The notes beneath the pieces are model-generated. The model was not told the DNA's origin and did not search any database. It saw nothing but the letters and a program-made list of their open reading frames with translations. A stretch of DNA of 21,343 nucleotides from an uncultured bacterium (GTDB lineage Bacteria; Bipolaricaulota; Bipolaricaulia; Bipolaricaulales; Bipolaricaulaceae), in assembly GCA_937122485.1 (NCBI GenBank), contig CAKZKH010000189.1:1-21343 (forward strand), written 5' to 3'. Below are positions 3,321 through 21,106 of this stretch, in pieces. The translations under genes were made by a program, and so were the position numbers. Position 1 is the first letter of the stretch. Each line of letters begins with the position of its first letter.

Positions 3321-3917
3321 TTAGGAAAGCAGCACCGCGGCCCCGGAGGGGACGGCCCGACCACGGTAGAGGAAGGTCAGCTGGCGGAACGCCGCCCAGA
3401 GGTCAAATTCGTTCAGGGCGCTTACGCAATCCTTGGGGACGATCACCCGCAACCCCCGCAGGGCCGCCGAGCCCGCGGCGTGAAGAACACAGATGTTCGC
3501 CACCGTGCCCACCACCACCAGGTTCTTCACGCCCCACTTCCTCAAGATCTCGTCGAGCTCGGTGCGGAAAAACGGGTCGTAGGTGGTCTTGCGCACCACG
3601 GGCTCGCCCTCCCTTGGGGCAAGCTCAGCCACGACTTCCGCACCCCAGGTCCCCTCCACCACGTGGGGCGGCCAAATCCGGAACTCCGGATCGTCGGGCC
3701 GGTGCCAGTCCTGGGTGAAGGCGACCCTCACCCGTTGGGCCCGGGCCCGGGAAAGAAGTGCAGAAATTGGCTGGATCGTGGCCGGGGCGGCGGGGACGAA
3801 CAGGGCCCCGTTTTCCCGCACGAAGTCGTTTTGCATGTCCACCACCAGGAGGGCCGTCTCCTCCCGCCGCAGCTCGATCCTCTCCGTCCAGGGGATTTCT
3901 GGAACTTCCACGTTCAT
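3321..3917 (-). CDS. pncA: Nicotinamidase (isochorismatase-family cysteine hydrolase), 198 aa.
   Basis: The isochorismatase fold includes LLVVDMQNDF and a catalytic Cys in VVVGTVANICVLHAA. RBS GGTGGAGGTG precedes ATG 3917. The start overlaps the pncB stop (ATGA). Confidence 0.8.
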   Translation of the reverse strand: MNVEVPEIPWTERIELRREETALLVVDMQNDFVRENGALFVPAAPATIQPISALLSRARAQRVRVAFTQDWHRPDDPEFRIWPPHVVEGTWGAEVVAELAPREGEPVVRKTTYDPFFRTELDEILRKWGVKNLVVVGTVANICVLHAAGSAALRGLRVIVPKDCVSALNEFDLWAAFRQLTFLYRGRAVPSGAAVLLS

Positions 3918-5215
3918 TTTGCCACCTCCACCAAGGCCTGGAGCTTGGACGAAAGCCGAACCGGGTAGTCGGGAACTTCGCAGGGGGAAAGGTCGGCCAG
4001 CTCCGGAGGAAGACCAAAAAGACTCTGGCGGACCTCTTCTCGGCGTCTGGCGAGTTCGAGTTTGGAAACGAGCCTTTCCCCGCGGACAAAAACCTTCTTG
4101 AGGAGCGGGCGACCCGGGCCTTTTTCCTCGTCTAAGGTTACTAGGTCCGCAAAGCCCTCCCGCCAGACCTGGCACTTTCCCGGAAGGGTGAGTTTCCCTG
4201 GGCTCTTTTTCATCCGCGGCCCCTTTTCGTCCTCGACGAGTTTGTAGACCCCGCCCAGGGCGGGAACGTCCCAGGACACCCCGAGCCGGGTTCCCACCCC
4301 GTACCCCCAAGCCACACCCCCCCGCCTCCGGAATTCTAGGATCCGGTACTCATCGAGATCGCCGGACACGAAAACCCTGATCTCCGGAAGGCCGGCCTCG
4401 TCCAGGATCCTTCGCACCTCCCGGGATAAGACTGCGAGGTCGCCGGAGTCCAGGCGAACTCCCACCACGGTCTTCCCCGTTTCTTTGGCCTCCTTGGCCG
4501 CTCGAACGGCGTTTCTTGCGCCCTGGATGGTGTCGTAGGTGTCGATGAGGAGAACCGGGTGGGGATGGTCTTCCACGAAGGTCCGGAAAGCCGAGAGTTC
4601 GTCGGGGAAGGAGAGGACGTAGGAGTGGGCCATGGTGCCCACCACGGGGATCCCGTAGAGCTTTCCTGCCAGGACGTTGGAGGTGCCGTGGAAGCCGGCG
4701 AGGAAGCTGGCCCGGGCGGCGCGGAGGGCCGCTTCCACCCCGTGGTCCCGACGGGGACTGAAGTCCACCACCACCGCCTCCGGCCCTGCCGCCACCAAGA
4801 TCCGCGCGGCCTTGGAAGCCACCAGGGTCTCGTAGTTGAGGACGTTGAGAAGCAAAGTCTCGATGAGCTGGGCTTGGATCCGCGGGGCGGTCACCGTCAG
4901 CAACGGCTCGTTAGGAAAAGCAATCTCCCCCTCGTCCATGGCCCAGACCTCTCCGGAAAACCGGAAGCTTGCCAGGTAGTCCAAAAAGGACCGGTGGAAG
5001 AGGCCCAAGCCCTGAAGGTAATCCAGGTCTTCTTCGGCAAACCGGAACTGTGGCAGAGCCTCCAGGAACGTGTCCAGGCCGGCGAAGAGGAGGAAGCGAC
5101 GGTGGGGGACCGGGGAGCGGACGAAGTAGGCGAAGGTGGCCTCCTGGTCCATCCCCTGTCGGAAGTAGGAGTAGGCCATGGTGAGCTCGTAAAGGTCCAG
5201 GAAAAGCCCGGGCAT
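3914..5215 (-). CDS. pncB: Nicotinate phosphoribosyltransferase, 433 aa.
   Basis: The N-terminus MPGLFLDLYELTMAYSYFRQG and internal GTMAHSYV motifs are characteristic of NAPRTase. It is translationally coupled to pncA. Confidence 0.9.
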   Translation of the reverse strand: MPGLFLDLYELTMAYSYFRQGMDQEATFAYFVRSPVPHRRFLLFAGLDTFLEALPQFRFAEEDLDYLQGLGLFHRSFLDYLASFRFSGEVWAMDEGEIAFPNEPLLTVTAPRIQAQLIETLLLNVLNYETLVASKAARILVAAGPEAVVVDFSPRRDHGVEAALRAARASFLAGFHGTSNVLAGKLYGIPVVGTMAHSYVLSFPDELSAFRTFVEDHPHPVLLIDTYDTIQGARNAVRAAKEAKETGKTVVGVRLDSGDLAVLSREVRRILDEAGLPEIRVFVSGDLDEYRILEFRRRGGVAWGYGVGTRLGVSWDVPALGGVYKLVEDEKGPRMKKSPGKLTLPGKCQVWREGFADLVTLDEEKGPGRPLLKKVFVRGERLVSKLELARRREEVRQSLFGLPPELADLSPCEVPDYPVRLSSKLQALVEVAK

Positions 5216-5467
5216 GCCAACTGAATTCTAGCGGAAGGAACCGGCAACGCTCAGCCCTTGGACTCCTCGGCCTAGCACGGCCTTACCCAAGGAGAGCCAC
5301 CAGGGGAAAGTTCTTTGGGGCGATGTTTGCGCCGAAAGTTGCGACCGGGCAACCGGTGCTCGTTCACCCTCTCCTACGTAGGGGGCAAGGCCCTTGGGAC
5401 AGGGGATTCACAGTAGGGGTAAGGTTCCCTGCCTACCGAACCGTGCGCTCATACCAAGAAGGCGCGT

Positions 5468-6078: not shown

Positions 6079-6879
6079 TCACGCTGCACCGGGAACAGTT
6101 TGGCGGGCCAACTGAACCAGCCCCTGGGCCAACTCCAGTGCTTCCCGGGCCCGTGAGGGGCGAATGCGCTCGCGGGGAGCCAAAGCCGCGCGGTCCCCCA
6201 TGTGCAGGGAGACGTTCTCCATGCGGAGGAGGGTCTTGAACCTGCGGAACCCGGGGCTGCGGCGCACGGCCCGGGCCAAAAGATCGGAAATCCCCTCCCC
6301 TTCGAGCACCGAAGGGTCCTCACCCTGGACGACAAGCCAAGCCCGCAGGGCCCGATCGCAGGCGGTCAACGCCGCAGCGAAAGCCCAGTCGTAGACCCTC
6401 TGGCCCAACAGGAGTTCGGCCACGGAAAGATCGTGCTCGGCCTGCTCCAGGTACCGCCGCGCTTCCTCCCAGTCCACCTCCACCTCGCGCGCCCCCACCC
6501 CGGCCCGCAGCTCGTCCAGCATCCCCTCGTCGGGGAACCCCAGGCGATGGGCAAGCTCGTGGTACACCGTGCGCCGAATTTGGTCCCTCAGCTCCTCGGG
6601 AGTCTGGCACCATTCCTCCAGCGGCCGCTTGTAGATGACGAGCGTCCCCTCAAAATCCCTGGGGTTTTCGGCCTCGAGGATGGAGGGGCCCTCGTACATC
6701 CCAAACGGGTAGTCCGGGGGCACCAGCCCCCACTCCCGCATGAGCTCGTCCTCAGGGTAGTCCTCGACGCGGACCTCCAGCCCCTGGAGGTAGGGCCGAA
6801 ACGAGGAGGGCAGTTCCTCCAGGGCCCCGCGCACCAGGGCCTGGAAGGCCGCGGGCGTCAAGTGCACCGGCATACCCAA
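6079..6879 (-). CDS. Fusion protein of 266 aa. The N-terminal ~125 aa is a Zincin_1/DUF1025-type minimal metallopeptidase (HELAH). The C-terminal ~130 aa is a HEPN domain.
   Basis: YHELAHRLGFPDEGMLDEL is the signature C-terminus of the small zincin-like family. DWEEARRYLEQAEHDLSVAELLL...AFAAALTACDRALRAWLV...SRAREALELAQGLVQ follows the HEPN (PF05168-like) helical pattern. The two domains lie in one continuous ORF. Confidence 0.7.
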   Translation of the reverse strand: MGMPVHLTPAAFQALVRGALEELPSSFRPYLQGLEVRVEDYPEDELMREWGLVPPDYPFGMYEGPSILEAENPRDFEGTLVIYKRPLEEWCQTPEELRDQIRRTVYHELAHRLGFPDEGMLDELRAGVGAREVEVDWEEARRYLEQAEHDLSVAELLLGQRVYDWAFAAALTACDRALRAWLVVQGEDPSVLEGEGISDLLARAVRRSPGFRRFKTLLRMENVSLHMGDRAALAPRERIRPSRAREALELAQGLVQLARQTVPGAA

Positions 6880-6900
6880 AAATTATAGAATGCGGGGGGG
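6880..6900. promoter_or_regulatory. AT-rich divergent promoter region. On the minus strand, TATAAT lies 7 nt before the zincin-HEPN ATG, suggesting a leaderless transcript. On the plus strand, TAGAAT is followed by a G-rich SD for the flotillin gene.
   Basis: The sequence aaaaattatagaat is the only AT-rich patch between the divergent genes. On the minus strand it reads TTCTATAATTTTTGGGATG. On the plus strand TAGAAT is 17 nt before ATG 6909, with GGGGGGGTGA as SD. Confidence 0.35.
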
Positions 6901-6908
6901 TGATCCCG

Positions 6909-8873
6909 ATGGAGTTGTGGATTTGGGTGGCCGCAGGCGTTTTGCTGGTGTTGCTCGTGCCCTCCATTCGCATCATTGGCCCGGACCAGGTGGGTCTGGT
7001 CATCAAGCGGTTGAGCTTCAAGAAGCTCAAGGAGGGCGAGGTGGTGGCCTTCCAGGGGGAGGCGGGATACCAAGCGGATCTTCTCCTCCCTGGCTGGCGG
7101 TTCAAGCTGTGGATTCTGTACAGCGTGAGCAAGCACCCCATGGTGCAGATCCCAGCCGGCCAGATCGGGGTGGTGATTGCCCAGGTGGGGAAGCCTTTGG
7201 ACCCTGGAGCCAAGTCCGGGGTGTACAAGCCCGAGTTCGGGGATTTCCGGGACCTCCGCAAGTTCATGGGACTGGGAGGACAGAAGGGGGTGCAACGGCC
7301 GGTGCTTCCCCCGGGGACTGTGGCCCCCATTCATCCCGTGGGGTTCTTGGTGATCACCAAGGACCGGGTGTACGGGGTGCCCATCTCCCCGGAGCTGCAG
7401 GCGGAAAAGAAGTTGGGGCCGGCCACGTGGGGCCTCAAGCCCGAGGACTTCACCGTCACCGTGATCGAACCCCTCATGCGCCAGCTCCCCGACGGGACCT
7501 CCAAGCGGGTCGACGTGGTGGGAATTGTGGAAACGTTCGAAGGCCCACCTCTGGAGCCGGGGGACATTGCCGGGCGGCTGGAGGGATTCTCCGACCTTGC
7601 GGACCTGGAACGGAACGGGGCCGACGACCTCACCTTGGTCAACGCCGTCCTCAACAGCAAGAACAAGTTGCACAACAACTACCAGGACTACCAAGCGTTC
7701 CTCGACCACGGGGGCCGCATCGGCATCCAACACGACCCCCTCCTCTACGGGGCCTACAACCTCAACCCCTTCCTCGTACGCGTGCGGCGGGTGCCCATGG
7801 TGGTGGTGGAGCAGGGGGAAGTGGCGGTGATCAAGTCCTACGTGGGCCTGGAGCCGCGGGACGTGTCCGGGGCGGAGTTCCGGTTTGGGACCCTTGTACG
7901 GCCCGGCCACCGCGGGATCTGGCGGGAGCCGTTGCGCACCGGCAAGTACGCCCTCAACCCGTACTGCTACGACCACGAGATCGTCCCCACCTACATCCTC
8001 ACCCTTAACTGGGCTCTGCAAACCTCCGAGGCCCACAAGCTCGACCGCCACCTCAGCCAAATCGTGGCCAAAAGCCGCGAGGGGTTCGTGTTCAGAATCG
8101 ACCTCCAGGTGCAGATTCACATCCCCGACGTCCAGGCCCCCCGGGTGATCTCCGCCGTGGGCACGATGGCCAACCTGGTGGATGAAGTGCTCCAGGCCGC
8201 GGTGGGCAACCACTTCCGAGACAAGCTGCAAAGCATGCCGGCCATCATGTTCATCGAGAACCGCCAGCGCGTCCAAGAAGAGGCCCTCCACCACATCAGC
8301 CAGCAGCTCAAGGTGTACAACGTCGACACCCGGGGCGTGTTCATCCAGGACGTCATCCTCCCCGATCAACTCGTGGAGGTGCTCACCCAGCGGGAGATCG
8401 CCAACCAGCAAATTCAGACCTACCGCAAGCAGCAAGAGGCCGAGACCGTGCGCATTGAAACGGAGAAACAGCGGGGCACAGCGGACCAGCAGGCCGAGCT
8501 GGCTCGGTCCATGGTGGGCATCGAGATCGCCAGAAACCAGGCCTCGGCCCGCGTGGCCCAAGCCGAGGGGGAAGCCACGTACCTGGAGAAGGTGGGCACG
8601 GCCAAGGCGGCCGAGGTGCGGGCCGTGGGCCTGGCCCGGGCCGAGGCCTACGCCAAGCAGGTCCAAGCCCTGGGGGCGGACAACACCGCCTTGGTCAACG
8701 TCATCACCGCCCTGGCCACCAGCCAGCAGCCGTTCGTGCCCGAGGTGTACGTGGGGGGCAACGAGGCCCGCGGCGCTGCCGACGCTCTTTACGCCACCCT
8801 CACAGGACTCCTGCGCAAGGGGGGTCTGTCGGCCGTCTTGGGCCCAGGGGAGGGCAAAACCAGCGCCACGTAA
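6909..8873 (+). CDS. Flotillin-family SPFH/band-7 membrane protein, 654 aa, with an N-terminal TM helix, tandem SPFH-like regions and a C-terminal coiled coil.
   Basis: The N-terminal TM is MELWIWVAAGVLLVLLV. SPFH-like segments begin at PDQVGLVIKR and MVVVEQGEVAVIKSY. The long Ala/Gln/Glu-rich coiled-coil tail (QTYRKQQEAETVRIETEKQRGTADQQAELAR...) is typical of flotillin or YqiK. Confidence 0.85.
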   Translation: MELWIWVAAGVLLVLLVPSIRIIGPDQVGLVIKRLSFKKLKEGEVVAFQGEAGYQADLLLPGWRFKLWILYSVSKHPMVQIPAGQIGVVIAQVGKPLDPGAKSGVYKPEFGDFRDLRKFMGLGGQKGVQRPVLPPGTVAPIHPVGFLVITKDRVYGVPISPELQAEKKLGPATWGLKPEDFTVTVIEPLMRQLPDGTSKRVDVVGIVETFEGPPLEPGDIAGRLEGFSDLADLERNGADDLTLVNAVLNSKNKLHNNYQDYQAFLDHGGRIGIQHDPLLYGAYNLNPFLVRVRRVPMVVVEQGEVAVIKSYVGLEPRDVSGAEFRFGTLVRPGHRGIWREPLRTGKYALNPYCYDHEIVPTYILTLNWALQTSEAHKLDRHLSQIVAKSREGFVFRIDLQVQIHIPDVQAPRVISAVGTMANLVDEVLQAAVGNHFRDKLQSMPAIMFIENRQRVQEEALHHISQQLKVYNVDTRGVFIQDVILPDQLVEVLTQREIANQQIQTYRKQQEAETVRIETEKQRGTADQQAELARSMVGIEIARNQASARVAQAEGEATYLEKVGTAKAAEVRAVGLARAEAYAKQVQALGADNTALVNVITALATSQQPFVPEVYVGGNEARGAADALYATLTGLLRKGGLSAVLGPGEGKTSAT

Positions 8874-8919
8874 ACCACCTGGGGTTGCAGCGCGCAGAGA
8901 AGAGCGTAACGTTGCCCCC

Positions 8920-9723
8920 ATGCGCGTGGGCTACGTGCAGTTTGGTCCAGCGTTTGGAGACAAGGAGCGCAACTTGGCCCGGGTGGGGGAATTCCTGGGC
9001 CGCGAACAGGCCGACCTCTGGGTCCTGCCCGAGCTTTTCTCTACCGGGTACCAGTTCGCCAGCCGCGAGGAACTGGCCGAACTTGCGGAGCCTGTGCCCA
9101 AGGGGCCGACAACCCAGCGGCTTGCGGCCCTGGCCCGGGAGCTGGGCTGCCACATCGTCGCGGGATTGGCCGAGCGCGCGGGCAAAGCCCTGTTCAACTC
9201 AGCGGTTCTGGTGGGGCCCCGAGGGTTTGTCACCGTGTACCGCAAGATCCACCTCTTCTACCGGGAGAGAGAGCTTTTCACAGCAGGCAACGTGCCGTTC
9301 ACCCCCGTGGAGGTCGCCGGGGCCAAGGTCGGTCTCCTGGTGTGCTACGACCACTTTTTCCCCGAGGCCGCGCGGAGTCTGGCCCTGGCCGGGGCGGAAG
9401 TTTTGGCCCACCCAGCCAACCTGGTCATGCCCGGCCTGGGGCAGATGACCATGCGCGTGCGGGCGTTGGAAAACCGGGTGTTCGCCGTCACCGCCAACCG
9501 CGTGGGGGAGGAGAACCGCACCGGAGAACCCCTGCGGTTCACCGGCCTTTCCCAGATCGTCTCTCCCAAAGGCGAGGTCCTCGTTTCCTCTGGCGAGCAG
9601 GGCGAGGAAGCCCGGGTAGTGGAGATCGAGCCTTCCTTGGCCCGGAACAAGAGGATCAACGCCCTCAACGATTTGTTTTCCGACCGCCGCCCAGAGTTCT
9701 ACCAGGCCCTGACCCGGCCGTAA
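8920..9723 (+). CDS. Carbon-nitrogen hydrolase (nitrilase superfamily), 267 aa.
   Basis: Catalytic triad context: Glu in WVLPELF, Lys in VYRKIHLF, Cys in GLLVCYDHFFPE. The start is at the internal ATG 8920, because the in-frame upstream ORF 8182-8919 lies antisense to the flotillin gene. Confidence 0.85.
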   Translation: MRVGYVQFGPAFGDKERNLARVGEFLGREQADLWVLPELFSTGYQFASREELAELAEPVPKGPTTQRLAALARELGCHIVAGLAERAGKALFNSAVLVGPRGFVTVYRKIHLFYRERELFTAGNVPFTPVEVAGAKVGLLVCYDHFFPEAARSLALAGAEVLAHPANLVMPGLGQMTMRVRALENRVFAVTANRVGEENRTGEPLRFTGLSQIVSPKGEVLVSSGEQGEEARVVEIEPSLARNKRINALNDLFSDRRPEFYQALTRP

Positions 9724-10015
9724 CAGGCCTCCGCGCGGGCCGGCTTGGCCGCCTGCTCCAGCAGGCGCTTGGTCAGCTCGGCGAACACGATCTGCCGGTC
9801 GGTGACCACAATGTCCTAGACCTTGGACGAGAACAGACCTGTCTTGCCCCGAACCCCTGCAATCAACCCCGGAGCCTCTCCTCTTGTTGGGTCACCGGAC
9901 ACCTCCCCCGCGGGGGTATCCCCGCCGAAGCCCTGCCCGGCCAGCGGCCAAACACCCTGGGGCGTGGCCTTCTGGGTCGCACCACCTGGGCCGCCCTCTG
10001 GAGTAGGATCGTGCC

Positions 10016-10795
10016 ATGCTGAAGGTGGCCACCTTCAACTGCAATTCCGTGCGCAGCCGGCTGCCCCTGATCCTGGACTGGCTCAAGCGGGAGTCCCCCG
10101 ACGTCCTCTGCCTCCAGGAGACCAAGGTTCAGGACGAGGAGTTCCCGGCCTTGGAGTTCCAGACCGTTGGCTACCACGTGGTGTTTCGCGGGCAGAAGGC
10201 CCACGCCGGTGTGGCCCTGGCCACCCGGTCCAAGCCCAAGAACGTGCGCTACGGACTCGACGACGGGGGTCCAGCCGACGAGCCGCGGCTCGTGCAAGCC
10301 ACAGTGGAAGGAATCCCCATTGTCAACACCTACGTTCCCCAGGGGCAATCCCTGGACTCCCCCATGTTCCAGTACAAACTGGAGTGGTTCGCGCGCCTCC
10401 GGACCTATTTCGACCGCTACTTTGCCCCGGACAAGCCGTTGCTGTGGTGTGGGGATTTCAACGTGGCCCCCGAGGAGATTGACGTGCACAGCCCGGAAAA
10501 GCTCAAGGACCACGTGGATTTTCATCCCCAGGCGCGGGCGGCCTTAGACCAGGTGCGCCGCTGGGGGTTTGTGGACGTGTTTCGTCTCTTCCATCCCGGG
10601 GAACCGGGCCACTACACGTTTTGGGACTACCGAGTGCCCCAAGCGGTGGAGCGCAACGTGGGTTGGCGGGTGGACCACATCTGGACCACGAAGCCCTTGG
10701 CCGCGCGGGCGCTGCGTTGTTGGATCGATCGGGAGGCGCGCCGAACGGCCAAGCCCTCCGACCACACCTTCCTTGTGGCGGAGTTCTCTCCCTAG
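10016..10795 (+). CDS. xth: Exodeoxyribonuclease III (AP endonuclease), 259 aa.
   Basis: Family hallmarks: MLKVATFNCNSVRSRL, LCLQETK, WCGDFNVAPEEIDV and SDHTFLVAEF. SD GGAGTAGGA precedes ATG 10016. Confidence 0.9.
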   Translation: MLKVATFNCNSVRSRLPLILDWLKRESPDVLCLQETKVQDEEFPALEFQTVGYHVVFRGQKAHAGVALATRSKPKNVRYGLDDGGPADEPRLVQATVEGIPIVNTYVPQGQSLDSPMFQYKLEWFARLRTYFDRYFAPDKPLLWCGDFNVAPEEIDVHSPEKLKDHVDFHPQARAALDQVRRWGFVDVFRLFHPGEPGHYTFWDYRVPQAVERNVGWRVDHIWTTKPLAARALRCWIDREARRTAKPSDHTFLVAEFSP

Positions 10796-10821
10796 AAAAA
10801 AGGCTGCCCGGATGGGCAGCC
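10796..10821 (-). terminator. Intrinsic terminator hairpin GGCTGCCC-ggat-GGGCAGCC. Minus-strand transcripts would see six U after it. Plus-strand transcripts see a 6-A tract before it, so it may also stop xth transcription.
   Basis: Perfect 8-bp GC-rich stem (10802-10809 / 10814-10821) with a 4-nt loop, flanked by A6 at 10796-10801. It lies 15 nt downstream of the minus-strand small ORF stop. Confidence 0.6.
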
Positions 10822-10835
10822 ACGCAGGCCGTCGT

Positions 10836-10898
10836 TCACTTCTTCCGCTTCAAAAGCAACCCAAGCTTGGCCTGCATCCACTCCCTTAGCCGCTTCAT
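10836..10898 (-). CDS. Candidate small protein of 20 aa, MKRLREWMQAKLGLLLKRKK, basic and amphipathic.
   Basis: The minus strand reads AGGGAGGTGAcgATGAAGCGG...AAGAAGTGA. SD GGAGGTGA lies 2 nt before ATG 10898-10896, the stop TGA is at 10838-10836, and a hairpin plus U6 terminator follows 15 nt later. It sits in an otherwise unassigned 275-bp gap between xth and ddl. Confidence 0.5.
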   Translation of the reverse strand: MKRLREWMQAKLGLLLKRKK

Positions 10899-11070
10899 CG
10901 TCACCTCCCTGTATGCACCCCACCCTCTGCACCCCAGACAAGACTTTTCACTGGTCCGATTCTGCACTGGGCCGGTGCTGTTCGACCCCGCGGGGGGAGC
11001 GCACCTTTGCCTCGCCGGCCCGAGACATTTCCCCTTGCTCGTCTCCCACCGGGCGGGGAACCTCTGCACC

Positions 11071-12024
11071 GTGAACCAGGTACGTGTGGGCGTTCTTTGC
11101 GGAGGAACTTCGGCAGAACGGGAGGTTTCGCTGCGGTCAGGGCGGGGCGTGCATCGGGCCTTGCGCGCCAAGGGCTGGGACGCCGAGCTCATCGAGATCG
11201 ACACCTTCGATGGTCTGCCCCAGCGCCTCAGACCCTACCCCGTGGTGTTCAACATCCTCCACGGTGGACCTGGCGAAGACGGCACGGTACAGCTGCTTTT
11301 GGACCTTATGGGCAAGGCCTACGTGGGCTCTGGGCCCCTGGCCTCGGCCCTGGCCATGGACAAGGTGGAGTCGCGAAAGCTGTTCTCCGGCAAGGACCTT
11401 CCCGTACCCTCCTGGCTTGTTCACAGCGCGGGGGACCTCGACGCTTTCTTGGCACGGGCCGAGGGGCTGGGGTTCCCCTTGGTGCTCAAACCCCGGCGGG
11501 AGGGCTCGAGCGTGGGCCTCCATGTCGTGGAAAGCGCGGAGAGGCTGAAAGCGGCTGCCTGCGAGCTGAAGGCCCAGTTCGGGGAGTTCCTCGTGGAAGC
11601 GTACATCCCCGGCCGGGAGCTCACCGTGGGGGTCCTGGAGCGCCAAACACAGCCCGAGGCACTGCCCATCGTGGAGCTGCGACCCAAGGGCAGGGAAGTG
11701 TTCGACTGGAAGGCCAAATACACCCCGGGCGAGTGCGAGTTTCTCTGTCCCGCCCCGCTTTCCCCGGAGGAGTCCGCCCGAGTCCAGGAAGTGGCGCTGC
11801 AAGCCCACAAGCTCCTGGGCTGCCGAGATTTTTCCCGGGCGGACATCCGCCTGGACCCCCACGGCACACCCTACATCCTGGAGGTGAACACGCTTCCCGG
11901 GATGACGGAGATGTCCACCTTGCCCCGGGCCGCCCAAGCGGCCGGTCTCTCCTACGAAGATCTCGTGGACGGCCTAGTTCGCCGAGCCCTGGCCCGCTTG
12001 GCGTCCACCCCCGCTGTGGGTTAG
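11071..12024 (+). CDS. ddl: D-alanine--D-alanine ligase, about 317 aa. GTG 11071 is the preferred start, with GTG 11086 as an alternative.
   Basis: RVGVLCGGTSAEREVSLRSG matches the Ddl N-terminus. ATP-grasp motifs include LHGGPGEDGTVQ, GFPLVLKPRREGSSVGL and EVNTLPGMTEMS. GGGCGGGGAA lies 10 nt upstream of GTG 11071. There is no in-frame ATG between the preceding stop and the conserved N-terminus. Confidence 0.8.
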   Translation: MNQVRVGVLCGGTSAEREVSLRSGRGVHRALRAKGWDAELIEIDTFDGLPQRLRPYPVVFNILHGGPGEDGTVQLLLDLMGKAYVGSGPLASALAMDKVESRKLFSGKDLPVPSWLVHSAGDLDAFLARAEGLGFPLVLKPRREGSSVGLHVVESAERLKAAACELKAQFGEFLVEAYIPGRELTVGVLERQTQPEALPIVELRPKGREVFDWKAKYTPGECEFLCPAPLSPEESARVQEVALQAHKLLGCRDFSRADIRLDPHGTPYILEVNTLPGMTEMSTLPRAAQAAGLSYEDLVDGLVRRALARLASTPAVG

Positions 12025-12079: not shown

Positions 12080-12727
12080 GTGAAACTCAACTGGATTGGG
12101 CATGCCTGTTTTTTGGTTGAATCCAAAGACGGCACGGCCATCGTGACCGATCCGTACGGGGAGAACGTCCCCTACAAGGCCCCGGAGGGACCGGCCCACG
12201 TGGTGACCGTGTCCCACGAACACTTTGACCACAACGCCGTGGGCCGGGTCAAGGGCTCCCCCCAGGTGCTGCGGGGCGTGGGCGAGTGGAACGTGCGAGG
12301 AATCCCGTTCCGGGGCATCGCCGCGTACCACGACACCAAGGGCGGCCGGGAACGCGGCCAAGACGTGATTTTCAAGTTCACAGTGGACGGCGTGACCTTG
12401 GCCCACTTCGGCGACCTCGGCCACACCCTCAACGCCGAGCAGCTCAAGTTCCTGCAGGACGTGGAGGTGGCCCTCCTCCCCGTGGGAGGGTACTACACGG
12501 TGGGCCCCAAGGAGGCGGTGGAAATCATCAAGTCCCTCCCCAAAGTGAAAGTGGTTGTCCCCATGCACTTCCGCACCCAGGTGGTCAAAGACTGGCCCAT
12601 TCGCCCGGTGGAGGAGTTCCTCCAGGAGGCCGCTCTCCCCACCAAGAACCTGGGCCAGGGCCCCGTGGAAATCACTCCAGGAAAGCTCCCCACCACAAAG
12701 GAGGTGTGGGTTCTCGACTATGCCTAA
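12080..12727 (+). CDS. MBL-fold metal-dependent hydrolase (UPF0173-like), 215 aa.
   Basis: MKLNWIGHACFLV...VSHEHFDHN is the characteristic pattern. RBS GGAAGGAGG lies 6 nt upstream of the GTG start. Confidence 0.8.
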   Translation: MKLNWIGHACFLVESKDGTAIVTDPYGENVPYKAPEGPAHVVTVSHEHFDHNAVGRVKGSPQVLRGVGEWNVRGIPFRGIAAYHDTKGGRERGQDVIFKFTVDGVTLAHFGDLGHTLNAEQLKFLQDVEVALLPVGGYYTVGPKEAVEIIKSLPKVKVVVPMHFRTQVVKDWPIRPVEEFLQEAALPTKNLGQGPVEITPGKLPTTKEVWVLDYA

Positions 12728-20579: not shown

Positions 20580-20613
20580 GGCCCCTCCTTGGGCAACCCT
20601 GTGCCCAAAAAAG

Positions 20614-20688
20614 CGCGCCCGGGAGGACTCGAACCCCCAACCCTCGGCTCCGAAGGCCGATGCTCTGGTCCTATTGAGCTACGGGCGC
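20614..20688 (-). tRNA. tRNA-Arg, anticodon TCG.
   Basis: Fold: GCGCCCG-TA-GCTC...GAGC-A-TCGGC-CTTCGGA-GCCGA-GGGTT-GGGGG-TTCGAGT-CCTCC-CGGGCGC-G. CCA is not encoded and a U6 run follows. Confidence 0.75.
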
Positions 20689-20765
20689 TGGGAGGAGCGA
20701 CGGGACTTGAACCCGCGACCGCCGCGGCCACAGCGCGGTGCTCTGCCAACTGAGCTACGCTCCCC
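20689..20765 (-). tRNA. tRNA-His (anticodon GTG), with an encoded G-1 and 3' CCA.
   Basis: G(-1)-GGGAGCG-TA-GCTC-AGTTGGCA-GAGC-A-CCGCG-CTGTGGC-CGCGG-CGGTC-GCGGG-TTCAAGT-CCCGT-CGCTCCT-C-CCA. The extra 5' G opposite C73 is the His identity element. Confidence 0.85.
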
Positions 20766-20768
20766 GGG

Positions 20769-20842
20769 TACGCCCGGGAGGACTCGAACCCCCAACCCGT
20801 GGGTTAGAAACCCACCGCTCTGTCCGGTTGAGCTACGGGCGC
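20769..20842 (-). tRNA. tRNA-Arg, anticodon TCT.
   Basis: GCGCCCG-TA-GCTC...GAGC-G-GTGGG-TTTCTAA-CCCAC-GGGTT-GGGGG-TTCGAGT-CCTCC-CGGGCGT-A. The acceptor and T arms are nearly identical to those of the Arg(TCG) gene. Confidence 0.8.
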
Positions 20843-20916
20843 TGGAGCGGGTAACGGGAATCGAACCCGTGTCACTGGCTTGGAAGGCCAGCGCTCTACC
20901 ATTGAGCTATACCCGC
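20843..20916 (-). tRNA. tRNA-Gly (anticodon TCC) with an encoded CCA.
   Basis: GCGGGTA-TA-GCTC-AATGGTA-GAGC-G-CTGGC-CTTCCAA-GCCAG-TGAC-ACGGG-TTCGATT-CCCGT-TACCCGC-T-CCA. Confidence 0.85.
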
Positions 20917-20933
20917 CAACCCAATCTTCGCCT

Positions 20934-20963
20934 ATCTTAGTCCAAGACCGGCAAGAGGGTCAA
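20934..20963 (-). promoter_or_regulatory. Putative sigma-70-type promoter for the minus-strand tRNA array: -35 TTGACC, 18-nt spacer, -10 TAAGAT.
   Basis: On the minus strand it reads TTGACCctcttgccggtcttggacTAAGAT. The -10 ends 17 nt before the tRNA-Gly 5' end. Confidence 0.4.
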
Positions 20964-20991
20964 GGACTGGAGGCGCCGGGCTTCTTGTGCC

Positions 20992-21020
20992 TTGCCGACC
21001 CCCGCCCCGCTGGCTATATT
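20992..21020 (+). promoter_or_regulatory. Putative sigma-70-type promoter for tRNA-Gln/thyX: -35 TTGCCG, 17-nt spacer, -10 TATATT.
   Basis: TTGCCGacccccgccccgctggcTATATT ends 11 nt before the tRNA-Gln 5' end at 21032. Confidence 0.45.
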
Positions 21021-21031
21021 GGGAGGGAGCT

Positions 21032-21103
<72 letters not shown>

Positions 21104-21106
21104 CCC

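Follow-up and report, generated by a model that had tools for sequence, protein, structure and literature searches.

Most characterised bacterial small proteins, for example AcrZ, MgrB, KdpF and CydX, are single-pass membrane proteins. Type I toxins are encoded by very short open reading frames (ORFs), with products of 19 amino acids (aa) in Ibs, 29 aa in TisB and 33 aa in Fst. Short cationic amphipathic helices that bind to membranes are found in SpoVM (26 aa), in the membrane-targeting sequences of MinD and FtsA and in the phenol-soluble modulins (20–25 aa). Tiny basic proteins are also found in the ribosome, bTHX of Thermus having about 26 aa and eL41 having 25 aa. Two further members of this last group are bL37 of Actinobacteria, a 24-aa protein with an isoelectric point (pI) of 12.0 whose M. 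tuberculosis orthologue is unannotated, and bS22, a 33-aa protein with a pI of 12.75 (PMC10081302). The element described here is a candidate gene of similar size, a small ORF (sORF) of 20 codons on the minus strand between the genes xth (DNA repair) and ddl (cell wall) in the metagenome-assembled contig CAKZKH010000189.1 (assembly GCA_937122485.1) of an uncultured bacterium of the Bipolaricaulaceae, phylum Bipolaricaulota. The window is the whole stretch of DNA that was analysed, positions 1 to 21,343 of this contig, and all coordinates refer to it unless another contig is named.

The peptide encoded by the sORF has some features of each of these groups. Like bL37, bS22, bTHX and eL41, it falls in the range of 20–33 residues, has about 40% or more Lys/Arg, a pI of about 12 and a Lys/Arg-rich tail, is restricted to one clade and is of the kind typically missed by annotation, and the Shine-Dalgarno (SD) sequence of its ORF is among the strongest of the contig. 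Unlike these ribosomal proteins, to which it has no sequence similarity, it has a much narrower distribution (two species so far) and a Leu/Trp/Met-rich stretch that is mostly missing from them; the likeness is one of functional analogy only. As in the small proteins of 50 aa or less known from E. coli, Salmonella and metagenome surveys, the sORF is stand-alone and intergenic, has its own SD and terminator, is unannotated and is recognised by conservation of its frame, but the peptide departs from the characterised small proteins in its hydrophilic, polycationic character and in a length below that of nearly all of them. With type I toxins the sORF shares its very short length, its own terminator, a patchy distribution and an mRNA predicted to fold over part of the ORF or start, whereas a hydrophobic transmembrane helix and a recognisable cognate antisense RNA are missing, and it is present as a single copy in the available sequence. 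The peptide resembles SpoVM, the MinD and FtsA targeting sequences and the phenol-soluble modulins in length, in its mixture of Leu/Trp/Met with Lys/Arg and in having no signal peptide. It differs from helices of the SpoVM type in a hydrophobic moment (0.23–0.36) that is within the range of shuffled sequences, in a much higher charge density and in the lack of a nearby exporter gene.

The comparisons described below favour, with a probability of roughly 0.6, a genuine translated small-protein gene under selection at the level of the peptide. Its parts, in the order in which they would be transcribed, are as follows.

10899 to 11070, minus strand: divergent region of 172 nucleotides (nt) between the sORF ATG and the ddl GTG, putatively holding the promoter and 5′ untranslated region (UTR) of the sORF and the promoter of ddl
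10901 to 10910, minus strand: SD sequence AGGGAGGTGA, followed by CG and then the ATG (read directly)
10836 to 10898, minus strand: small ORF, with ATG at 10898–10896, 20 sense codons MKRLREWMQAKLGLLLKRKK and a TGA stop at 10838–10836 (read directly)
10822 to 10835, minus strand: spacer of 14 nt between stop codon and hairpin (read directly), in which GGCCTGCGT pairs with ORF codons 8–10 AUGCAGGCC in the predicted fold
10802 to 10821, minus strand: intrinsic terminator hairpin GGCTGCCC-ATCC-GGGCAGCC of 8 base pairs (bp), 7 of them G-C (consensus scan and fold)
10796 to 10801, minus strand: T6 tract abutting the xth stop codon (read directly)

The first-pass annotation, which was made from the letters of the window, had described an SD, an ATG, a 20-codon ORF and a stop on this strand, and every one of these elements is present by direct reading. 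The sequence GGAGGTGA would form eight pairs in a row with the canonical 3′ end of 16S rRNA (taken as the general bacterial anti-SD, the window itself having no 16S gene), the spacing from GGAGG to the ATG is 5 nt, and few of the 15 putative gene starts examined in the window have an SD as strong as this one. The perfect 8-bp stem and the T6 that were reported after the stop codon are also there, except that the stem stands 14 nt from the stop and not 15. On the plus strand no T-run follows the hairpin. Since the T-run is on the minus-strand side only, the terminator serves the minus-strand transcript and not xth. Among 14 terminator-like sites found by the consensus scan in 20 kb, fewer than in shuffled sequences (19.3), the combination of a perfect 8-bp stem, a tetraloop and T6 occurs at the sORF only, and the whole window has three runs of six T or A. 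That such a set of signals is unlikely by chance, as had been claimed, agrees with 300 first-order Markov shuffles. An arrangement of GGAGG, a gap of 4–9 nt, ATG, an ORF of 10–60 codons and a terminator, with the hairpin and T-run required within 70 nt, occurs once in the 21-kb window and had a mean of 0.023 in the shuffles. The GC content given with that claim, 68%, is too high; the measured value for the window is 65.5%.

The evidence that carries the reading as a gene comes from relatives. In the first scans, in which GTDB genomes and JGI metagenomes were searched for xth, at least 160 loci were listed, all with xth identities of 76% or less, and in these neither the peptide nor the spacer was found by tblastn, blastn or hidden Markov model (HMM) searches. 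A protein search found the 90% cluster to which the window xth belongs, together with two clusters at 78% identity, and contigs were taken from these. All seven same-species contigs (L161–L167, 99% identical) have the sORF unit intact. The unit is also present in a sister lineage, represented by three metagenome assemblies (L168, L169 and L175) that are mutually identical in the sORF region. The sister-lineage xth is the reciprocal nearest neighbour of the window xth, with 78% identity in both amino acids and nucleotides, and it is followed by a metallophosphatase (Metallophos) gene instead of ddl. Directly past its stop codon, on the minus strand, are an SD GGGAGGTGACG, a 4-nt insertion, an ATG, 20 codons MKRIKEWMQAKLGRLFKRKK and a TAA stop, and then a hairpin GCGGCTACC-CACC-GGTAGCCGC with a T7 tract that overlaps the xth TAA. 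The SD block (C)ATA(C)AGGGAGGTGACG is conserved, the 4-nt insertion lying between this block and the ATG, and one G-C pair of the hairpin has become A-T through a compensatory change of both arms. DNA upstream of the SD is essentially unalignable between the lineages, with a 46-nt difference in length and with the exception of two short blocks, and the sequence from the stop codon to the hairpin is largely unalignable as well. Since both flanks have diverged to this extent, the constraint is centred on the SD and the ORF. The sORF unit thus stays with xth even though the gene on its other side differs (ddl or Metallophos), and its linkage to xth may be inherited synteny. The first-pass annotation had raised the case of orthologous loci with a conserved hairpin and UTR but a disrupted ORF. 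The opposite is seen, in that the ORF, the SD and the function of the hairpin are kept while the upstream UTR and promoter region is unalignable apart from the two short blocks. Its claim of a complete small gene is therefore strengthened by the sister lineage, which keeps the 20-codon ORF, the SD and the terminator after xth, with substitutions that preserve the peptide.

The ORFs of the two lineages are identical at 52 of 63 nt (82.5%; 11 differences) and the peptides at 16 of 20 residues, with equal length in both. There are no indels within the ORF, although indels flank it. The replacements are L4I (CTA to ATC), R5K (AGG to AAG), L14R (TTG to CGG) and L16F (TTG to TTC), while Leu12 and Leu15 are each kept through a two-base codon change (CTT to TTG) and the stop codon changes from TGA to TAA. 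The invariant positions are M1, K2, R3, E6–G13 (EWMQAKLG), L15 and K17–K20 (KRKK). Within the species, the spacer has seven variable sites, of which three are single-nucleotide polymorphisms (SNPs) in the ORF: 10858, TTG to TCG (L14S); 10854, CTT to CTG (synonymous at Leu15); and 10852, TTG to TGG (L16W). Leu15 is thereby encoded by three codons across the haplotypes (CTT, CTG and TTG), and codons 14 and 16, which vary both within the species and between the lineages, are tolerant positions. In the terminator stem, a 1-nt deletion at 10803 in two of the same-species contigs leaves 7 bp. When 11 random substitutions were placed on the ORF in 200,000 trials, the start, frame and stop remained intact in 18% of the trials, and they remained intact with four or fewer replacements in 0.29% (p ~0.003). 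Frame 0 is the best conserved of the six frames (17/21, compared with 12–14 of 20–21). Start, stop and length are thus kept, and the substitutions preserve the peptide across species, in two lineages whose xth identity is 78%. A weak second terminator-like hairpin at 10874–10862 has its T-run abolished by the same-species SNPs at 10852–10858.

The 20-codon reading was compared with longer and shorter ones in the same frame. In the window, purely mechanical reading finds the frame open as far upstream as a GTG at 11204, giving 122 aa, and no family match was found for this upstream-extended frame. In the sister lineage it is closed by an in-frame TGA three codons before the ATG, so that what is conserved is the ORF of 20 codons, which does not form the end of some longer gene. 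A start at an upstream in-frame GTG (22 aa) was rejected, as this codon sits within the SD and as L168 has a stop that closes the frame. An internal start at Met8 (13 aa) was also rejected, since its SD-like AGGGAG is just 3 nt upstream. This AGGGAG (10877–10885, minus strand; AAGGAG in L168) is kept in both lineages at the same 3-nt distance, too close for normal initiation, and probably represents the R5/E6 codons.

Outside the two lineages the unit has not been found. An HMM of four peptide variants, searched against six-frame translations of 175 loci and the window, gave 44–52 bits (E 1e-11 to 1e-13) in the two lineages only, and the next match, at 15.7 bits, is a chance viral one. In six syntenic lnt-xth-ddl loci (L001, L002, L003, L082, L084 and L086) the gap between xth and ddl is without the unit, as it is in L170 and L171, which have the same synteny and an xth identity of 78%; no minus-strand ORF or terminator is present in the gap of any of these eight loci. 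The gap is 76–167 nt in most syntenic relatives, while L084 and L086 instead hold a plus-strand gene of about 270 aa between xth and ddl. In L174, whose xth is 73% identical, a gene for an 85-aa DUF6504 protein (3792–4049 of that contig) is convergent with xth and overlaps its stop codon by 4 nt. Together with the insertion in L084 and L086, this gene marks the position after xth as a hotspot for changes in gene content. A search of 169 loci for comparable basic sORFs, or for terminators on the minus strand past xth, found none elsewhere.

Several observations weigh against a peptide-coding gene. Only two lineages carry the sORF, so that the coding test consists of 11 substitutions and 3 SNPs, and the random-substitution model takes no account of mutational bias or clustering. 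The differences in the ORF are evenly distributed over the codon positions (4, 3 and 4), whereas those in xth show a third-position excess (43, 23 and 106). Identical codons are used at 11 of 13 conserved residues, compared with 61% in xth (p = 0.06), and this raised codon identity could be a hint of extra constraint at the RNA level. Two of the three within-species SNPs in the ORF are non-conservative (L14S and L16W), and the ORF is not less polymorphic than the remaining spacer (3 sites in 63 nt compared with 4 in 212 nt). The absence of the unit from all other syntenic lnt-xth-ddl relatives means that the sORF is dispensable outside the clade. A consensus scan of 10300–11500 found no sigma-70-like promoter site on either strand, in an organism that shows recognisable sigma-70-like promoters at its tRNA genes. 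Finally, the idea, taken up below, that the peptide binds RNA or the ribosome draws only on its size and charge, with no similarity to any ribosomal protein family in Pfam, NCBIfam or the PDB sequences.

Even so, judged by the substitution pattern between the two lineages, peptide-level selection appears better supported than a reading in which only the RNA matters. It is unlikely that the product is a small RNA (sRNA) or a dual-function RNA, whose 63-nt block would be kept for target pairing or structure with the ORF incidental or secondary. The first-pass annotation had named an sRNA with an embedded ORF among its candidate roles, and this option is weakened. Such an RNA would fit a transcript that is short, stand-alone and Rho-independently terminated, like many sRNAs, as well as the perfect 19-nt block GGAGTGGATGCAGGCCAAG common to both lineages, the slightly raised synonymous-site identity and the lack of a third-position excess. 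It would leave the retention of a near-perfect and well-spaced SD of 8–9 nt, the ATG, an ORF of equal length and the stop codon as incidental, along with the two-base synonymous changes in Leu codons and the low probability, noted above, of an intact ORF with so few replacements. In both lineages, sequence past the stop codon is able to fold back on the ORF or on the region of the start; the predicted fold of L168 has GUGCCAC, which follows the stop, paired with GUGGCAU around the ATG. This back-pairing is unproven, because the long-range pairings are not homologous between the lineages and because the fold energies, apart from the terminator, are not better than those of shuffled sequences (z = -0.12 and -0.22). 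An Rfam scan of the window at the gathering thresholds found five tRNAs only, and a permissive scan of 10700–11150 (E up to 10) gave only matches at E 0.6–7.7, far under the gathering scores. Still less probable is that there is no gene, the hairpin being an element of xth transcription or RNA stability, or an insulator that separates convergent units, and the SD, ATG and ORF being due to chance or a decaying remnant of the 122-codon frame. That frame is open over its 122 codons in the window and many spurious ORFs arise in high-GC genomes, but its closure in the sister lineage, its lack of a family match and the absence of a larger protein with the sequence of the peptide among 5.8 billion or 1.84 billion proteins speak against a remnant. 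The T-tract, being on the minus-strand side only, orients the terminator against xth. The negative promoter scan and the absence of the unit from most relatives would be compatible with a non-gene, whereas the SD, ATG, length and stop are kept at 78% xth identity while the flanking spacer is unalignable. No gene caller annotated the sORF in any contig fetched from the two lineages, which is uninformative because gene callers skip ORFs under about 30 codons.

The properties of the peptide bear on what such a gene would do. The strongly basic character described in the first-pass annotation is evident from a pI of 11.75, a net charge of +7 in the window and +8 in the sister lineage, and a Lys/Arg content of 40–45%. 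The grand average of hydropathy (GRAVY) is -0.83 to -1.30, and the longest uncharged run is 5 residues in the window and 4 in the sister lineage. The same annotation had called the peptide amphipathic, which does not hold, since its helical hydrophobic moment of 0.23–0.36 (0.23 in the window) is reached by 26–58% of same-residue shuffles (58% for the window). It had also considered the peptide too short for a typical transmembrane toxin; with no uncharged run longer than 5 residues, the peptide is indeed too short, and too charged as well. With uncharged runs of this length and no excess amphipathicity, there is no membrane span, so that a classical type I toxin is ruled out and the idea of a membrane-active peptide is weakened. 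In a broader form, this idea includes a type I toxin-like peptide whose mRNA is silenced by folding or by antisense read-through from xth, or a secreted cationic peptide similar to the phenol-soluble modulins or leaderless bacteriocins, and it is improbable. The length of 20 aa and the cationic sequence with a Leu/Trp/Met face would suit such a peptide, but there is no hydrophobic segment comparable to the 18 or more apolar residues of a type I toxin span, the core of the sister orthologue contains a charged Arg and the hydrophobic moment is not above that of shuffles. The sORF recalls toxin genes in being a stand-alone cassette that ends in a strong terminator and has a patchy distribution restricted to one clade, whereas type I toxins are often multicopy and the sORF is single in the window and in each fetched locus. 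The convergent arrangement makes read-through from xth antisense to the sORF, and the mRNA is predicted to fold around part of the ORF or around the start codon, yet no antisense promoter was found on either strand in 10300–11500, no antitoxin family was found with Rfam, and no exporter, immunity or mobile-element gene is nearby.

No family could be assigned to the peptide. Searches of three variants against Pfam-A and NCBIfam with hmmscan (E up to 10) gave no match, whether to the small ribosomal protein families bTHX, bL36, bL34, bS22/DUF1713, eL41 and bL37 or to any other. A profile search of PDB chain sequences, ribosome structures included, found nothing beyond a match of 11 residues to neuropilin (E = 2), which is due to chance. 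The 40-aa concatenation of both orthologues had no match in 5.8 billion protein clusters, and tblastn of the peptide against a plasmid collection found none. HMMER, run over 1.84 billion representatives with a 30-aa query, gave P0130 as its sole match; this 1143-aa tandem-repeat protein, in which 16 weak repeat matches were summed, was rejected as an artefact. When viral contigs were scanned for the back-translation of EWMQAKLG, the one match lay within a phage protein of 1687 aa and was attributed to chance. A leader peptide or attenuator finds no place here, since past the terminator the minus strand is only the antisense of the convergent xth, in the window as in the sister lineage. On this sequence evidence the peptide probably represents a new small-protein family of the bacterial microprotein kind, known to date from two sister species in an uncultivated phylum.

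If the sORF is a gene of this kind, a promoter somewhere in 10899–11070 would give a monocistronic mRNA of roughly 100–170 nt, whose strong SD would drive translation of the 20-residue peptide. The terminator would halt the transcript exactly at the xth stop codon, so that no antisense transcription would run into xth. The selected product would be the peptide rather than the RNA alone. As a soluble polycation, the peptide would be expected to bind a polyanionic partner through a short helix and its basic tail, and by analogy the likeliest partner might be a structured RNA or the ribosome, a suggestion that is put forward tentatively. The more specific proposal of a ribosome- or rRNA-bound microprotein peculiar to the Bipolaricaulota, gained recently in one small clade, is a long shot. 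If true, no free-standing bacterial protein of the ribosomal type would be smaller than this one, with its 20 residues; bTHX, bL37 and eL41 would be its analogues, without any relation in sequence.

If real, the sORF adds a protein-coding gene that annotation has missed and that, with 20 codons, is at the very bottom of the size range, in a candidate phylum known from metagenomes only. None of the gene callers used on these contigs detects it, it is absent from protein libraries on the scale of billions of sequences, and it illustrates how tiny genes can be recovered from their signals together with a comparison of two lineages. It would also provide a compact and testable case of a polycationic microprotein that was recently gained or retained. 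Its narrow distribution limits its value, and because conserved small-ORF families with no assigned role are common, a specialist would find it plausible rather than surprising.

The genes on either side of the sORF unit, all on the plus strand, are the following.

8182 to 9723, plus strand: Lnt-like gene of the CN_hydrolase family (family scan)
10016 to 10795, plus strand: xth, with its TAG stop codon at 10793–10795 (Pfam Exo_endo_phos, E 8e-34)
11071 to 12024, plus strand: ddl, with a GTG start (Dala_Dala_lig_N/C; the N-termini of relatives agree with this start)
12080 to 12727, plus strand: gene of the Lactamase_B_3 family (family scan)

The sORF is convergent with xth and divergent from ddl. 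Among the matches listed, the closest named relatives of xth are in metagenome-assembled genomes of Candidatus Bipolaricaulota/Acetothermia, with identities of 76% or less. According to the family annotation of the window, the neighbours are all housekeeping genes, which offer no hint of what the sORF does, and none of them encodes a transporter, an exporter or an immunity function or belongs to a mobile element. In relatives ddl starts about five residues ahead of the RVAVLCGG motif. With the ddl start set by this homology at 11071, the gap between xth and ddl is 10796–11070; its length of 275 bp, as first described, was confirmed once the xth TAG and the ddl GTG had been placed.

Automatic gene calls treat this gap differently. 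In L161, L162, L164 and L167, ddl is called as a 385-aa protein starting about 70 nt past xth, antisense across the sORF (10866–11070 in the window). The JGI call for ddl is 287 aa, and the homology-based GTG at 11071 gives 317 aa. The ddl frame is mechanically open over 10483–12024. The N-terminal extension was rejected because the ddl of relatives starts at the equivalent of 11071 and the stretch ahead of it lacks conservation; the 68-codon extension made by automatic pipelines across the opposite-strand sORF is likely an annotation error, and the annotation of ddl is corrected here to that extent. In the 290-nt gap between the Lnt-like gene and xth (9724–10015), minus-strand calls differ between near-identical same-species contigs (65, 55 or 36 aa, or no call; L162–L166, about 2682–2880), and these calls are probably spurious.

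Upstream of the sORF, the first-pass annotation had seen no convincing -10/-35 and had regarded TTGTCT...CATACA as weak at best. The consensus scan likewise found none, and TTGTCT...CATACA was rejected because its -10 would put the transcription start inside the SD. The one weak candidate is a -10-like CAGAAT at 10965–10960, with no good -35, and a good TAAAAT in L168 has no conserved counterpart in the window. The promoters of the tRNA genes serve as references for this genome. The four-tRNA cluster Arg-His-Arg-Gly (20607–21106, minus strand), which ends in T6 at its 3′ end (20607–20612), has the promoter TTGACC-18-TAAGAT, and the tRNA-Gln gene, which is divergent from the cluster, has TTGCCG-17-TATATT. 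A 10-mer GGCAAAGGTG on the minus strand is common to the otherwise unalignable spacers, at 11003–11014 in the window (CACCTTTGCC on the plus strand) and at about 4030–4045 in L168. The probability of sharing a 10-mer by chance is about 0.05. In other relatives GCCCTTG is found at a similar distance upstream of ddl. The shared 10-mer may be a -35 element or operator of the plus-strand gene, or part of the promoter region of the sORF.

Elsewhere in the window, the ORF at 6079–6879 (minus strand) encodes a Zincin_1 metallopeptidase-like protein with a HEPN domain, reminiscent of defence or toxin modules. This gene is divergent from a Band_7 gene on the plus strand, and a near-palindromic AAATTATAGAAT / ATTCTATAATTT lies between the two, with -10-like boxes a few nt from the putative starts. 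In the NAPRTase gene, TAGAAT is found 9 nt ahead of the putative ATG. The spacing of these boxes (6870–6905 and 5215–5235) suggests that leaderless mRNAs may be common in this organism.

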